This document shows positions 14,061 to 61,102 of a stretch of 64,000 nt of DNA, piece after piece. The position numbers and the translations under genes are program-made. Location: the NCBI GenBank assembly GCA_000092065.1, contig CP000585.1. One strand, 5' to 3'. The notes under the pieces were generated by a model. It saw only the letters and a list, made by a program, of their open reading frames with translations. It searched no databases and was not told where the DNA came from. Source of the stretch: Ostreococcus lucimarinus (taxonomy: Eukaryota). Numbering within the stretch: position 1 is the stretch's first letter; each line of letters begins with the position of its first letter.

Positions 14061-14820
14061 GAAGGCTTTAAATACGTATTTCTCTGTGAGTATGATTTAT
14101 CTTGCGTGTAGATACTGTATGTACAAACAGTGACACATTAGATACGACGCCCCGGGGGAACTTCGGCGAATTCAATCGACACCGCCGCGCGCGCGCCATC
14201 GAGCGACGCGGGCGGCGCGCATGTCGCGCGCGCGCGCGAGATGCGACGCGATGCCGTCGACGATCGCACCCCGCGCGCCCGCGCGCGCGTTCGCGTCCAA
14301 ACGCGCGCTGGACGCGATGCGAAAGCTGCGCGAACGATGCGACGACGGGCGTCGCGCGGTGCGCGACGCGCTCGCGGCGAGCGCGGACGCGCTCCGAGGG
14401 ACGCGCGCGAGCGCGAAGGAGACGGAGACGGCGATGGAGGCGTTCGTGAACGGGGCGAGGGAGGTGCTGACGCGATCGGGCGATCGGACGGGGGTGGGGA
14501 AGGAGAACGAGAGGTGCGACGCGGCGACGCGAGCGACGCGCCAACAGTTATCTCGCGAGACGCGAGGACGAGACGAGAGACGAACGGGACGGGCGCGATG
14601 GACGACGCGGGAGGGCGGTCGAGGGATGAAATCAATTGTGGTGACGCGTGGATCAGCGCGATCGGTGGTCAGAGCTCGAGGCGCGCGAGGGTGAAGACGA
14701 ATGGAAGACTGACGACGAAGACGCGCCGCGCGGCGCGCGACGGCGACGCGCAGCGCGAAAGCGACGACGACGACGCGCGGGAGCGCGAGGAAGAGCGGCG
14801 GCGCGCACGCCTCGAAAGGT

Positions 14821-16781: not shown

Positions 16782-18590
16782 CTATGTCTTGACGGGATGG
16801 CCGTTTTCATCCAAACCTTCGACGCGCGGAAAGAGAGCGAGCTTTTCAACCTTAGTTCCCGGCTTCAATCCGCCCCATTTCGTTCGTTGTGCGATCGATC
16901 CCTCACCAAGGCCGACTCCAGCGTCGAATTCCGCCATCTTGTTGGGCATCAAAGGCTCCAACAACACCGCGGCGATGCGAAGCGCTTCGAGGCACTGGTA
17001 CAAACAAGCCGCCAATTCGGCGCTCTTTGACTCGTCCTTAGCCATGCGGAAAGGCTCGGTTTCCGTGATGAATAAATCGACATCCATGACGATGTTTTTC
17101 GCCGCCGCTGCGGCGCGAGGAAGGTCCAACTTGTCGTACGCCGTCAACGCGTCTTGAACGTGCGCGCTCGTGCGCGCCGGCCAGTCCCAGTTATCGAACG
17201 TCACCCGCGCACCGTTCGCCTCTTCGCTTCGCACTTCGCCGTCGAAGTACTTGTTAATCATCGCGGTCGTACGACTGACGCTGTTACCCATGGTATTCAC
17301 TAGATCGCTCGAATAGATTTCTTGAACGCGTTCGGCGCTAAAGTTGGCGTCTTGCGCGCCGATCGGTCCTTCGACGGCGAGATAGTATCGCATCGCATCC
17401 AAACCGTAATGCTCCTTGAATCGATCCATGCAAGCCAAATCAACGAAGTTACCTAGTGATTTCGACATCTTGCGTCCCTCGCGAATCCAGAAAGCGTGCG
17501 CGTGCACGCGCTGAGGAAGCGGCAAATCGAGCGCCATGAGGAGCGCGGGCCAAATCACCGAGTGAAACCAAGAAATTTCCTTGGCCATGATGTGCATGCT
17601 CGCGGGCCAGTACTTGGATCGATCGGCGTAAACGATGGAATCCTTACCATCGCCAAGACCGATAGCGGTGATGTAATTCATCAACGCGTCGATCCACACG
17701 TAAATGACGTGCTTTTCGTCATCCGGCATCGGGATGCCCCACTTGAAGTTGGTACGCGAAATCGGCACGTCGTTCAACCCTTCATTCAATCGACCGATCA
17801 TCTCGTTACGCCTCGCGCTGGGCGTCAAAAAATCTGGGTTATCAGCGTGCAGCGCCTCGAGCTCCTTCTGGAACTTGCTCAATCGAAAGTAATAATTTTC
17901 CTCGCTCGAGCGAACCATATCCTTTCCGCTAATCGGGCTCTTGTAATCGAGCTCCTTCGCCTTGGATTCGGTGTAATACTCCTCTTGTCCTTCGTCGTAC
18001 CACCCCTCAAAGCGACCCAAGTACACCGCATCCTTCTCCTGCAGCACCTTCACCAACGCCCGCACTTGTCTCTCGTGATAATCATCCGTCGTGCGAATAA
18101 ACTCGTCGAAGGAAATATCGTACGCCGTCATGACGTCGCGAAACTTTTGACTATTCTCATCCGCCAACGCCTGCGGTTCGATCCCTCGCTTCTCCGCGCT
18201 TTGCTCCACCTTCAATCCGTGTTCATCCGTGCCCGTGAGAAAGAACACGTCCTCCCCACGCGCCCTTCGATACCTCGCGTACGCGTCCGCCACCGTCGAC
18301 GTGTACACGTGCCCGATGTGCGGCTGATCGTTCACGTAATATATCGGCGTCGTCACGAACGTCGGCCCTTCGCTCGCGCGCGCCGCGACCGCGCATCCCC
18401 GTCCGCGCGTCGTCGCTCGCGTCGTCGCCGCGCGCGCGACGCATCCGCGCGTCGCCGTCGCCGTCGCCGCCGTCGCCGTCGTCGTCACCGCCGTCGTCCG
18501 CGTTCGTCCCGCGACCGTCGTCGCGCGTCGCGCGCGCGCCGTCCGTCGCGACAGCATCATCACCCGCGACGTCGCGGACGCGAGCGCCAT
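16782..18590 (-). CDS. MARS: Methionyl-tRNA synthetase, organellar type
   Basis: [28 protein letters not shown] carries the class-I HIGH motif. [11 protein letters not shown] carries KMSKS. A Ser/Thr/Arg-rich presequence ([26 protein letters not shown]) starts at the first plausible ATG, 18590, inside track ORF 16782..19049. Confidence 0.8.
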
Positions 18591-24718: not shown

Positions 24719-25650
24719 ATGACCGCGCTCGAAGAAATCTCCACCGACGAGCTCATGCGCGAGATTCAGCGGCGGCTGGAGTGCCAAAATAAGCCAGACA
24801 AGCGCTTGATCCTCATCGGTCCGCCGGGATGCGGCAAGGTGCGCGTTTTCGACCGTCAACTTCGACCGTCAAAACCTCAAAAAGCGCGCTTCGGGACACC
24901 CGACTGACGACGCGTCTCGACGCCGAACAGGGAACGCAATCGCCTAAGATTAAATCCGACCACTGCCTGTGCCACCTCGCGACGGGGGACATGTTACGCG
25001 CGGCGGTGGCGGCGAAAACGCCGAACGGCGTGAAGGCCAAGCAAGCCATGGAGAGCGGAGCGCTCGTGAGCGACGATATCGTGGTCGGGTGCGTGTGGAG
25101 CGTTGCGATGGCGCGTTCGAGCGCGAGTGATGATACACGAGGCCCTACGCTGTGTTCTTGTGTCCTGCGCGGTGACTGACAGAGATGCTTCACTTGTGAA
25201 TGTAGGATTATCGAGGAAGCCGTCAAGGCGCCCGAGTGCCGAAACGGTTTCATTTTGGACGGGTTCCCGAGAACGGTGCCGCAAGCGGTGAAGTTGGACG
25301 AGATGCTCTCTGCGAAAGGGGTATCGATCGATGCAGTGCTGAACTTTGAAGTGCCGGATGAGGTACTCGTAGAAAGGGTGGAGGGACGATGGATCCACCC
25401 CGCGAGCGGGCGATCGTACCACACGAAGTTTGCTCCGCCGAAGGTTGAAGGGAAGGATGATTTCACGGGAGAACCTTTAATTAAGCGTAAGGATGACAAC
25501 GCGGAGACCCTTAAGTCACGCTTGCAAGCGTTTCACACGCAAACGCAACCGGTTATCGATTACTACGCGATAGCAAAGAAGGTTACTGAAATTCACGCCA
25601 ACAAACCAGCCAGCGATGTCGAAGCGCAAATTGCAGCGGCGTTGAAGTAG
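24719..25650 (+). CDS. ADK: Adenylate kinase, three exons: join(24719..24838, 24931..25088, 25206..25650)
   Basis: Exon 1 encodes [40 protein letters not shown] (P-loop). Exon 2 encodes [53 protein letters not shown]. Exon 3 encodes [34 protein letters not shown]...[61 protein letters not shown]... The three are collinear with plant ADK1. The introns are 92 and 117 bp, phase 0 and phase 2. The donors are GTGCGC and GTGCGT. The acceptors are CAG and TAG. CTGAC branch motifs lie 25-30 nt upstream of the AG. The spliced length of 723 nt gives 240 aa. Confidence 0.8.
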
Positions 25651-44591: not shown

Positions 44592-44849
44592 GGCGCGCGT
44601 CGAGCGCTCGACGTCCCGAGCGCGTCGAGCGATACAGCGAGACGCGCGTCCGAGACGATCGAGAGACGCGCGCGCGCGTCCGGCCGCGATCGCGCGGCGC
44701 GATGGCGAGATTCGCGATCGGAATCTCCGCGTCCGAGACGTCCGAGACGTCCGAGACGATCGAGCGACGCGAGCGTTCGCGAACGGCAGTCGCGCGCGCG
44801 CCCACACGCGATCGAGGCGCGCGTGCGATACGACGAACGCGGCGTCGCG

Positions 44850-45998
44850 ATGCCGAGCTTCCGCGATCGCGCGCACGCGGACGCGCGCGCGGCGCGCGCG
44901 GCGCCGGCGTACGCGCACCCGACGGCGAAGGAGCGCGAGTCGATGGCGCAGATGCGCGCGTGGTTGGCGCGCGATGGATCGGCGCTGCCGCGCACGATGA
45001 CGCGCGCGGAGTGCGGTGGGGAAGAGCGCGCGCTGTTGAAGTTCGTGCGGGCGAGGAAGAGCGCGGAGAAGTCGTACGAGATGCTGAGGAACACGCTGGC
45101 GTGGCGGGCGAGGGAACGCGTGGACGCGTGCCTGTCGGAACCGATCGACGACGATAAATTGAAACACGTGGAGAGGATACCGGCGTATTACGCCGGGTTC
45201 GGGAAGACTGGACATCCGATCTACGTCGAGCACACGGCGGTGATTCCGTGGCCGACGATATTGGAGCACATGACGGCGGATGAGTTTTTGAAGAGTCAGG
45301 TGCAGACGCTCGAGTGGCAGGCGAGCGTGGTGTATCCGGAGGCGTCGCGACGGGCGGGGGAGCCGATCACGCAGGTGATTAACGTTTGGGATTTGAAAGG
45401 GCTCACCATGAGTGGGTTCACGAGCGAGATCAGGGCGTTCGTGAAGAAGGCGAGCGCGGTGGCGCAGGACAATTATCCCGAAGGATTGTACGCCGCGTAC
45501 ATCGTCAACGCCCCGAAGATTTTCTCCTTCGTTTGGGCGGTGGTTAAGCAGTTTTTAGACGCTAAAACGGTGGCTAAGGTGCACATTTACGGCAGTGGGT
45601 CGAAAATGTACGAAAAACTCTTAGATAGGCTCGGGCCGGCGACGCTGCTGCGCAAGGAGATGCTGTGCTGCCGGACGAAAGAAATCGGCGAAGCCGAGGC
45701 GGCCGCCGGGTTGCAACCCGCGCACGGTGCCACGCAAGAATGGATCAAATCGCAGCTAAAGGGCGAGGAACCCACGGGTGGGGCCGCCCCTGGATCGCTC
45801 CGTCGCGAGAGTAGCACGCAGAACCTGTACGACGTCTTCTTCGACGCCGCATCCGAACTTCCGCCGTCGTCCATGACCGAAAGGGAACTCGAACGATACG
45901 CGACGACAAAAGACTCGTTCGGACTGGCGAGCGAACAACCCGATGCGCTCGCACCGGATGTCGTGGACGAGAAGCAGAAGTGTTGCAAATGTTGCTAG
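44850..45998 (+). CDS. SEC14-like phosphatidylinositol transfer protein (CRAL-TRIO domain)
   Basis: [32 protein letters not shown] is the CRAL-TRIO N-terminal region. [20 protein letters not shown]...[20 protein letters not shown]...[38 protein letters not shown] is the lipid-binding domain. The first plausible ATG is 44850. The gene is divergent from ArfGAP. Confidence 0.75.
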
Positions 45999-46198
45999 CG
46001 CGTCGCCGCGATAGTCAAAGTGACGACCGAGGACACGCATCGTAGCCAATCTTGTACATTCTAGCATGCAATAACTTATAATAACAGCGACATCCGTCGT
46101 TCAAATCATTTTACATCGTCACCATCGTCTAGTACGACGGCGATTCATAATCTAAGAAGAGTGTGTACACGAGAGGAACGCGCTCGAGTCGAGCGCGT

Positions 46199-46488
46199 CT
46201 AGAAATCAACCTCCGGTTGTTGCGTCGGCAAAAGTGAAAACCGCTTCTTCAGCGCGACTCGTTGCTTCGAAAACTTATCATCCGGCGAAAATCTCGCCGG
46301 GTGCGCCGATTGCGTCGGCGTTCCATCCGGGGCGGTTTTCTGCGTCGCGAAATCCGGCGCGTCAGTCGCGCGTCCGTAGGGTTGCGTCGCCTCGCGCGCG
46401 CGTCGCGAATTCGCCTCGCGCGTCGTCGCCCGCGCTCGCGCACCTTGAGCGTGTACACCCGCTCGCCCTTCTCGTTCATGTAATACAT
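46199..46488 (-). CDS. NOP10: H/ACA ribonucleoprotein complex subunit NOP10, two exons: join(complement 46444..46488, complement 46199..46339)
   Basis: This gene is not in the ORF track. Reverse-strand exon 1 encodes [15 protein letters not shown] and ends at a GTGCGC donor. The 104-bp intron 46340..46443 carries GACTGAC 20 nt before the acceptor CAG. Exon 2 encodes [46 protein letters not shown] and ends at a stop. The 61-aa product matches NOP10 from end to end (plant MYLMYYINEKGDKVYTLKK...[34 protein letters not shown]). Confidence 0.75.
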
Positions 46489-46767
46489 CAAGTACCTGCG
46501 TTCGTTCGCGCGCGTTCGACGCGCGTCAGTCGCTCGCGTTCGCGTCCCGTCGCCGCTCGAAATTCCGGCGGCGGCGATCGCCTCTCGGCGTTTCCGCGCC
46601 GTCCCCGTCCCGCGTCCGCGACGCCGCGTCCGCGTCCGCGATCGCGCGCGCGTCGCGCGATTCTCGCCCGCGCGTCGCGTCGTCGCGTCGTCGCGTCGTC
46701 GCGCGCACGCACATGTCGCTCGTGACCTCGCGTCGCGCAATGCCGAATCGGCATTCGCCGGCGCGCC

Positions 46768-47106
46768 ATGTCGCGCGCGCTGCGGCGCCTCGCGCGCGCC
46801 AAGCACGACGCGGCGACGAATCCCATGGGGTTCCTGCTCGAGAACCCGCTGAAGCTGTACCGCGATTGCATGCGGTTGGCGGATTTCTTGGCGCACAAGC
46901 AGGGACACTCCAGGGACGCGCTGCGCGCGACGGTGCGAGCGCCGTGGAGGACGCACAGGGACGAGCGCGATCCGGAAAAAATCGTGGCGCTGCGAGAGAA
47001 CGCGGTGCGGGGGCTGTCGAATTACATGATGTACGAGGCGTCGCGGGGCGCGATGGCGGGGACGCCGGCGTTCGCGAAGGAGGACGAGGAAGAGCGACGA
47101 GAGTAG
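46768..47106 (+). CDS. LYR-motif (Complex1_LYR) family protein
   Basis: The 112-aa ORF contains the L-Y-R motif region NPLKLYRDCMRLADFLAHKQ and the downstream basic/aromatic pattern of LYRM proteins. The stop codon is embedded in a 3x GAGTAGACGA repeat. The gene is divergent from NOP10. Confidence 0.55.
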   Translation: MSRALRRLARAKHDAATNPMGFLLENPLKLYRDCMRLADFLAHKQGHSRDALRATVRAPWRTHRDERDPEKIVALRENAVRGLSNYMMYEASRGAMAGTPAFAKEDEEERRE

Positions 47107-47129
47107 ACGAGAGTAGACGAGAGTAGACG
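47095..47129. repeat. (GAGTAGACGA)3 decamer repeat spanning the LYR gene stop codon
   Basis: There are three tandem copies. The TAG of the first copy serves as the LYR stop codon. Confidence 0.75.
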
Positions 47130-47171
47130 CGAAGGATGTAACATATTGCGATTTGATGGTTTCACGAGTCG

Positions 47172-47924
47172 CTAGTGCGCCGCGTCGCCGCGAGCGAGCG
47201 CTCGCCAGAGGCAACCGCCGAGCATGACGATTTGAGGATACGAAAACGCCGCAATCGAAATCGCGAACGTCAACGAGAATGCGTGCTTGATTCGTCGCTC
47301 TTGCGTCGGAATCGGCCGCAGCGCTAAACCGAAGGCAATTTGATGCGTTATGAACATGCTCAGCGCGTAGAGCCAAAGAAATGCACGACTGTCGCTTCTC
47401 GGCACGCTCGCCCTTCGCAAAGGAATGATGAAGAACCCGACGCCCATGAGAATTCCCAAACCGAAGCAATACGACATCGCCAGCGCTGGTCCGATGGGAA
47501 TACCGAGCAACAACCGCAAGCACACCCACACCGAGCAAAACGTGGTCAAGAAGATCCAAATCACGTCCCCGACCGCGGGTCCGTATTCGCGCGCGTCGTC
47601 GCCTCGATCTCGTTCCGACGCGACGCCGGCTCTCCTGAGAAGTCGTCCCACGAAGCTCTCCGGCACGTCAAACTGCGTCGACTCCCTGCACACTTCGCAC
47701 ACGTTCGATCCCTTCGTTCGCAACCACTTCTCCGCGCACGTTTCGTGGACGTAGACGCCGACGCACGCGCACTCGAGTTTCACCAGCCTTGACTCTGGCA
47801 ACTCCTCGACGTCGCAGAGACACACTCGGCACACGGCATCGGCGGGCGCGTCGTCGTCGGATGGGCGTGGCGCCGGATGTGTCGCGGATGGGCATGGCGT
47901 CGACGCATCGACGCGCGGCGGCAT
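47172..47924 (-). CDS. RING-CH (MARCH-type) zinc-finger membrane E3 ligase-like protein
   Basis: CRVCLCDVEELPESRLVKLECACVGVYVHETCAEKWLRTKGSNVCEVC has the C4HC3 RING-variant spacing. About five TM helices follow. Confidence 0.65.
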   Translation of the reverse strand: MPPRVDASTPCPSATHPAPRPSDDDAPADAVCRVCLCDVEELPESRLVKLECACVGVYVHETCAEKWLRTKGSNVCEVCRESTQFDVPESFVGRLLRRAGVASERDRGDDAREYGPAVGDVIWIFLTTFCSVWVCLRLLLGIPIGPALAMSYCFGLGILMGVGFFIIPLRRASVPRSDSRAFLWLYALSMFITHQIAFGLALRPIPTQERRIKHAFSLTFAISIAAFSYPQIVMLGGCLWRALARGDAAH

Positions 47925-60514: not shown

Positions 60515-61102
60515 GATGCTCGCGCGCACGACCGCACCGACTCGCACGACCGCCACGCTGCGCAGGTGCGCGCGAAGCGCGACGCGAATCGCGGCGCGGC
60601 GCGACCGCGCGCGCGACCGGAGACCGAGGACGCGCGACCGGAGACCGAGGACGCGAGGACGAGGGAATCGTCGCGCGAGGCGCGGCGAGGCGAGCGATCG
60701 CGCGCGCGAACGGACGAGAGGACTGACGAGACGCGATGGTGACGAATGAATAGCCGCGTGGCGAAGCAAACGCGCACGGCGAAGCGCGGCGCGCGCGTCG
60801 CGGCGCGCGCGTTCGATGACGTGAACGTCGTGATCTCGTCGGCGAACGCGATTTGCCTGGCGTTGGGACGATTCGTGTTTTTGCCGTACCAACGCGCGCA
60901 AGTCGAACGCGTGGGCGCGCCGACGCAAAACGGACAGACGCACTTCGCGGCGGGCGACTCGCGCGCGGAGGAGGCGTCCTTCATCGTGTCGACGAACGAT
61001 CCGGCTGGGTTCACGATCGTGGACCTGCTCGCGTGGGGGTCCATCGGGCACGCCGTCGGATTTCTCGCGCTCGCGTCCCAGTCGGCGCAAACGATGTTGT
61101 GA
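60515..61102 (+). CDS. PSAG: Photosystem I reaction centre subunit PSI-G (PsaG/PsaK family), two exons: join(60515..60564, 60754..61102)
   Basis: Track ORF 60746..61102 encodes [71 protein letters not shown]. This matches Arabidopsis PsaG ([71 protein letters not shown]). Upstream exon 60515..60564 (MLARTTAPTRTTATLR) ends in AG followed by a GTGCGC donor. The 189-bp intron has GACTGAC 25 nt before the TAG acceptor at 60751-60753. The phase-2 join gives a 132-aa precursor with a typical transit peptide. A TATTTAAG TATA box lies at 60417-60424. Confidence 0.65.

Follow-up and report, generated by a model that had tools for sequence, protein, structure and literature searches.

The NOP10 gene of Ostreococcus lucimarinus: evidence for a probable third exon and a probable intron-split start codon

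Archaeal Nop10 carries zinc-ribbon cysteines, the absence of which is typical of eukaryotic NOP10. Human NOP10 (7bgb_J and others) and yeast Nop10 (1y2y_A, 3u28) have N-termini of the form M-[F/H/Y]-L-[Q/M]-Y and are the known proteins that the product studied here resembles from end to end. A closer relative is the NOP10 of Ostreococcus tauri, which is represented in the version 2 annotation of that genome (P0002; locus L005, CAID01000005.2), an RNA-seq-informed annotation for which 89% of introns are reported as validated by RNA-seq (PMC4378021). For Ostreococcus lucimarinus, we analyzed a stretch of 64,000 nucleotides, referred to here as the window, in which all coordinates are given. It contains the single-copy NOP10 gene of this alga, which is transcribed from the minus strand. 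Based on the analyses below, we propose, with a probability of roughly 70%, that this is a three-exon gene whose start codon is split by its first intron and whose product is 64 amino acids (aa) in length.

On the minus strand, a 45-nucleotide (nt) stretch of 15 codons (46488..46444), beginning with an ATG at 46488, is followed by a 104-nt phase 0 intron (46443..46340) and then by a 141-nt coding stretch of 46 codons (46339..46199), which reads KTAPDG...KKRF...EVDF and closes with a TAG stop at 46201..46199. The intron is of the GT..AG type, with a GTGCGCG donor, a CAG end and the branch motif GACTGACG at 46367..46360, which places the branch A 22 nt from the 3' end, and it lies between K15 and K16 of the 61-aa product. 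A sequence-only reading of the window had proposed this two-exon gene, and its coordinates, strand, translations and splice signals were all reproduced. In the three-exon model, the same elements are exon 2 (46495..46444, minus strand; G + TAC TTG ATG TAT TAC ... CTC AAG, of which 46444..46488 is the first exon of the two-exon model), intron 2 and the coding part of exon 3. The GC content is 75% in intron 2 and 51-55% in the exons. Since the 104-nt intron shifts the frame, the product of unspliced read-through of 46443..46340 had no family match in a Pfam search.

The same reading had described the region as an apparently empty gap where the open reading frame (ORF) track shows nothing. This description did not hold, as a mechanical six-frame ORF list contains several long, spurious, GC-rich ORFs there, in line with what DNA of 63% GC would be expected to show. 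Among them are an Arg/Ala-rich ORF of 436 aa on the minus strand (46249..47559), which reads the 15-codon stretch straight into the intron, and an Arg/Ala-rich ORF of 163 aa on the plus strand (46234-46725); these two run over the NOP10, LYR and RINGv genes. ORF length alone is uninformative in this genome because its CG-rich composition yields long spurious ORFs, and the general lesson that had been drawn, that ORF-only scans overlook short split genes, is correct but trivial. That the GC-rich window gives many such ORFs on both strands also speaks for reading the locus itself as non-coding, GC-rich DNA in which an ORF arose by chance or a pseudogene fragment is decaying. We regard that explanation as extremely improbable, for reasons that emerge from the protein, transcript and comparative data.

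The 61-aa spliced product matched the Pfam family Nop10p (PF04135; gathering cut-off 27.2 bits) with 87.0 bits and E=8.9e-25, in agreement with the identity first suggested for it, and 46339..46199 alone scored 58.8 bits. Gap-free alignments were obtained with human NOP10 (7bgb_J, E=2.9e-22) and with yeast Nop10, for which two deposited sequences gave E=6.6e-19 (1y2y_A) and E=3.2e-19 (2aqa_A). In HMMER alignments, the SAHPARFSP(D/E)DK and KKRF blocks were the same as in the human and yeast proteins. The product is clearly NOP10, H/ACA ribonucleoprotein subunit 3; by homology, this small protein is predicted to be a core subunit of H/ACA snoRNPs that binds the pseudouridine synthase Cbf5/dyskerin and supports the pseudouridylation of rRNA and snRNA.

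An exact-sequence look-up showed that the identical 61-aa product is on record for O. lucimarinus CCE9901 (ABO96213.1 / XP_001417920.1 / UniRef100_A4RX20), where its UniRef name is "Nucleolar protein 10". The adjacent entries A4RX21 (LYR) and A4RX22 (RINGv) belong to the same 847,696-bp record. The gene is therefore not unannotated, as had been claimed; the same 61-aa, two-exon product is already in GenBank, RefSeq and UniProt, and the sequence-only reading had arrived independently at the JGI/NCBI gene model. With the gene and its two-exon structure already known, a likely correction of the N-terminus is the sole new element of the present analysis.

Removal of intron 2 was observed directly. 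A transcript-like contig (L012; JGI sample 3300016815), 99.5% identical to the window, encodes the 61-aa protein contiguously and exactly, and its BLASTN alignment with the window splits into two blocks, 46658..46444 and 46341..44804. It lacks exactly the 104 nt of the intron, so that the junction joining 46444 to 46339 predicted by the sequence-only reading is confirmed, and two contigs of a sister lineage whose protein is 92% identical (L003 and L004; JGI 3300016833) show the same K|K junction. NOP10 is thus expressed, and 46443..46340 is spliced out of its transcript. The contig L012 also runs through NOP10 into a convergent CRAL_TRIO gene (window 44804-46658), whose stop codon ends at 45998, which leaves about 200 bp between the two stops. 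Either overlapping 3' UTRs or an unstranded concatenation is indicated, which fits the finding that RNA-seq assemblies of O. tauri join neighboring genes through overlapping UTRs (PMC4378021).

To place the locus among green algae, we compared it with genomic loci from close relatives (L001/L002), another Ostreococcus lineage (L006), O. tauri (L005) and a Micromonas-like alga (L010). The gene order LYR / NOP10 / CRAL_TRIO was kept in L001/L002, O. tauri and L010; the L006 contig is too short to show gene order. The exons were without indels, and strain-level indels were confined to the two introns. Introns were 104-147 nt (intron 2) and 154-237 nt (intron 1) in length, and their identity between lineages was ~50-62%. 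Relative to the window, the ratio of synonymous to non-synonymous codon differences ranged from 16:6 to 30:9, the latter in L010. These comparisons of sequence point to purifying selection on NOP10, as synonymous changes far exceed non-synonymous ones while the introns have diverged. The explanation of the locus as a chance ORF or pseudogene is refuted by the Pfam score, by the splice in L012 and by the synonymous bias; the full-length collinearity with solved NOP10 structures and the conserved synteny also stand against it.

The position of intron 2 is common to O. tauri, L006, L010, L007 and the Chlorella-like contigs L013/L014. As it is found also in L007 and the Chlorella-like contigs, the K|K position is old within green algae. 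Other features of gene structure vary: two Mamiellales-like relatives, L011 (327-521) and L016 (433-627), are without both introns, and L007 (1501-1785) has intron 2 and is without intron 1. In the Chlorella-like L013 and L014, a splice acceptor lies directly before the ATG, 2 nt off the Mamiellales position.

The first indication that the 61-aa product may be incomplete comes from the N-termini of its homologues. A length of 64 aa is shared by 93 of the best 120, in which a start of the form M-[Y/H/F]-L-[M/Q]-Y is near-universal; Leu3 is present in 92 of these 93. Six entries among the 120 are 61 aa long, and all of them start with MYY. The two that we inspected (Chlorella sorokiniana L014, LHPG02000010.1, 990-1010; L015, 150-170) have an in-frame ATG TAY CTN directly upstream of the called start. 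Because these 61-aa MYY entries hide such an upstream start, a false start at the internal Met, codon 4, is a miscall that recurs. In the relatives L011 and L016, which have neither intron, the sequence expected after splicing, ATGTACCTCATG, is contiguous. We considered whether these two copies (P0003 and P0004, respectively) could be spliced cDNAs and rejected this, as they are intronless genomic copies with AT-richer, promoter-like DNA upstream; that upstream DNA had no match to exon 1 of L010.

In the window, the sequence directly upstream of the annotated ATG is CGCAG|G TAC TTG ATG, and farther upstream on the minus strand a candidate intron of 217 nt (46712..46496) begins with a GTGCGTG donor and ends with CGCAG. 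It would be of phase 2 and would lie within the start codon itself: the inferred exon 1 ends with AT at 46714..46713 (cgacAT|GTGCGTG), and joining 46713 to 46495 restores an ATG, followed by a 64-aa protein that starts MYLMYY.... The branch motif GACTGACG of this candidate lies at 46531..46524. For introns of O. lucimarinus outside chromosome 2, the published 5' splice-site consensus is GTGCGTG (Irimia & Roy 2008, PMC2483917), and in those confirmed by ESTs ACTGAC is present in 87% and GACTGACG in 66.5% (PMC2483917). Candidate intron 1 has exactly the published consensus, GTGCGTG with GACTGACG, and intron 2 has GTGCGCG with GACTGACG. The 5' UTR probably reaches upstream of 46714 by a few tens of nt.

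The specificity of these signals depends on their combination, because GACTGACG alone was weakly enriched in the window (9 occurrences vs 4.4 expected, with 6 of 100 shuffles reaching 9). The full set of donor, branch and acceptor occurred 8 times, vs 1.55 in dinucleotide shuffles, an enrichment of ~5-fold. These 8 are the two NOP10 introns and six further stretches of the form GTGCG[TC]G...ACTGAC...YAG, five on the plus strand (14359-14753, 17170-17303, 24839-24930, 25089-25205 and 60566-60753) and one on the minus strand (57473-57357), which probably represent genuine introns belonging to other genes. When 45500..47500 was scanned with Rfam for a snoRNA hosted by an intron or for any other RNA, nothing credible emerged (only MicL, 13.6 bits vs a gathering score of 56), and neither NOP10 intron contained an RNA family. 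The 5' part of intron 1 contains a (CGACGA/CGCGACGA)n-like repeat (46660-46705, minus strand, and the aligned region of L001/L002), the length of which differs among close strains (+16, -6, +10 nt and others).

With the proposed N-terminus, scores against the family are higher. The 64-aa form scored 88.8 bits against PF04135, covering the full profile (1-52), and 85.6 bits against human 7bgb_J vs 80.8 bits for the 61-aa form. Its residue 1 falls opposite residue 1 of human 7bgb_J, of 9yfl_F and of yeast 1y2y_A, and the alignment is free of gaps, with residues 1-61 opposite 1-61 of 7bgb_J and 1-58 opposite 1-58 of 1y2y_A. The two-exon model is correct as to NOP10, the intron and the junction, and is probably short of three N-terminal residues.

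A second line of evidence is the conservation of the intron-1 signals. A single AT|GTRNG donor was found at the corresponding position in L001/L002, L004, L006, O. tauri L005 and L010. In five diverged lineages, the donor lies 154-237 nt upstream, one CTGAC lies 23-32 nt before the acceptor, and the acceptor has the form YAG|G TAY YTS ATG. The sequence around these signals is unalignable between the lineages, and the signals are kept. The Tyr and Leu codons upstream of the annotated ATG show synonymous variation only (TAC/TAT; TTG/CTC/CTG). It is likely, in our view, that the genomes of Ostreococcus and of its Micromonas-like relative hold no intact NOP10 start codon, and that a codon assembled by splicing is conserved across the Mamiellales.

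These observations have to be weighed against the transcript data. Only splicing out of 46712..46496 would give the protein the canonical N-terminus M-[Y/H/F]-L-[M/Q]-Y, and the transcript contigs keep that stretch: intron-1 sequence is still present in all three (L012, L003 and L004), from which intron 2 has been removed. A search of metagenome contigs for the junction of exons 1 and 2 (ATGTAYYTSATGTAYTAY...) found no Ostreococcus transcript. The sole match, L013, was rejected as a spliced junction transcript, as it is a Chlorella-like genomic contig without an intron at that site. Exact look-ups of the 64-aa and 61-aa spliced products of L010, L006, L003, O. tauri, L001 and L007 found neither form on record, so that this result is uninformative.

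One explanation of these data is that the two-exon, 61-aa gene is complete, with its start at 46488, and with 46489..46712 being either 5' UTR that is left unspliced or DNA behind the transcription start site; on this view, the conserved upstream ATGT... is a coincidence or begins a short upstream ORF. We consider this explanation rather unlikely. The retention of intron-1 sequence in all three contigs, though intron 2 is spliced there, is what it would predict, as is the failure of the exact look-up to find a spliced 64-aa product from the lineages that bear intron 1. The 61-aa form by itself reaches 87 bits against Pfam. Furthermore, there is no ATG in the window from 46712 to 46489, and therefore a transcript starting inside the intron-1 region could give the 61-aa form directly. 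In the sister lineages (L004, L006 and O. tauri), the retained region has ATGs upstream, which would be an obstacle to translating a 61-aa ORF. An unspliced leader also leaves several features unaccounted for. The intron-1 signals match the species consensus and are kept in five lineages whose surrounding sequence is ~50-60% identical, and the two codons before the supposed start change only synonymously. M-x-L is near-invariant in the family, every other 61-aa entry that we inspected hides an M-x-L upstream, and the O. tauri v2 annotation splices at AT|G. As for the contigs, it is possible that a 5' exon of a few tens of nt, which short-read assemblers readily clip, was lost from them, and that they are concatenations of overlapping transcripts.

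At the donor end of intron 1, two candidate 5' splice sites lie in tandem at an offset of 4 nt (AT|GTGC|GTGCGCG; 46705-46714, minus strand). Only the first, at 46712, keeps the NOP10 frame, and it is the one that other lineages conserve; splicing from the second, at 46708, would shift the frame. If intron 1 were real and its donor were the GTGCGCG at 46708, the first AUG would open a short out-of-frame ORF, and the 61-aa NOP10 would be made by leaky scanning. GTGCGCG is the donor in 7 of the 8 full-signal candidate introns of the window and here lies just 4 nt downstream of the in-frame donor. Even so, we view use of this site as very unlikely: other lineages have the AT|GT donor only, without a tandem site, and the published consensus GTGCGTG is that of the 46712 site. 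In addition, a housekeeping gene would presumably pay a cost for an upstream ORF that is out of frame and overlaps the main one.

Upstream, the 5' region of NOP10 is bounded by its divergent neighbor, a Complex1_LYR gene (A4RX21; 46768..47106, plus strand), beyond which is the RINGv gene (A4RX22; 47172..47924, minus strand). The LYR ATG (46768, plus strand) and the NOP10 exon-1 ATG (46714, minus strand) are head to head and 53 bp apart. With this spacing, the two 5' ends would have to share a minimal bidirectional promoter or overlap it.

We hypothesize that NOP10 is expressed as follows. A minus-strand transcript would carry a short exon 1 ending ...AT at 46713, and the 217-nt intron 46712..46496, with its GTGCGTG donor, GACTGACG branch motif and CAG end, would be spliced out. 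The G at 46495 would then complete the start codon ATG, giving the canonical 64-aa NOP10, and the annotated 61-aa start would be an internal Met at codon 4 of that protein.

The significance of this proposal is small, as NOP10 is a housekeeping gene found universally, and the public annotation already contained this copy. Its practical value is modest and lies in the probable correction of one gene model to 64 aa and three exons, an intron dividing the start codon. If the proposal is true, the public 61-aa model of O. lucimarinus is truncated by three near-invariant residues, and the same miscall may recur in other green-algal NOP10 annotations, as codon 4 of NOP10 is usually Met and so offers a false start. 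The very strong GTGCGTG / GACTGACG signals of the Mamiellales could also help in finding very short 5' exons overlooked by gene predictors.

Archaeal Nop10 (e.g., 2aus_D, 2hvy_C and 3lwo_B) has the family and the core in common with the NOP10 of O. lucimarinus, matching over residues 15-52 with E-values of ~1e-5 to 5e-4; the archaeal zinc-ribbon cysteines, however, are without counterpart in the O. lucimarinus protein, which contains no cysteine. From the human and yeast proteins, it is separated by ordinary sequence divergence only, with no sign of a functional difference. The public entry (XP_001417920.1 / ABO96213.1 / A4RX20) is 100% identical to the 61-aa product and has the same neighbors as in the window; the three-exon model goes beyond it in having the upstream intron and the residues M-Y-L at the start of the protein. 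The O. tauri v2 protein (P0002) is 93% identical, and its gene has the LYR / NOP10 / CRAL_TRIO order in common with the window. It differs in its intron-1 donor, which is GTACGT vs GTGCGT in O. lucimarinus, and in starting at a further-upstream in-frame ATG, which gives it a 23-aa extension (MNSASRHFF...) that is not conserved in other lineages. Both of its intron positions are those of the window, including the AT|G split.
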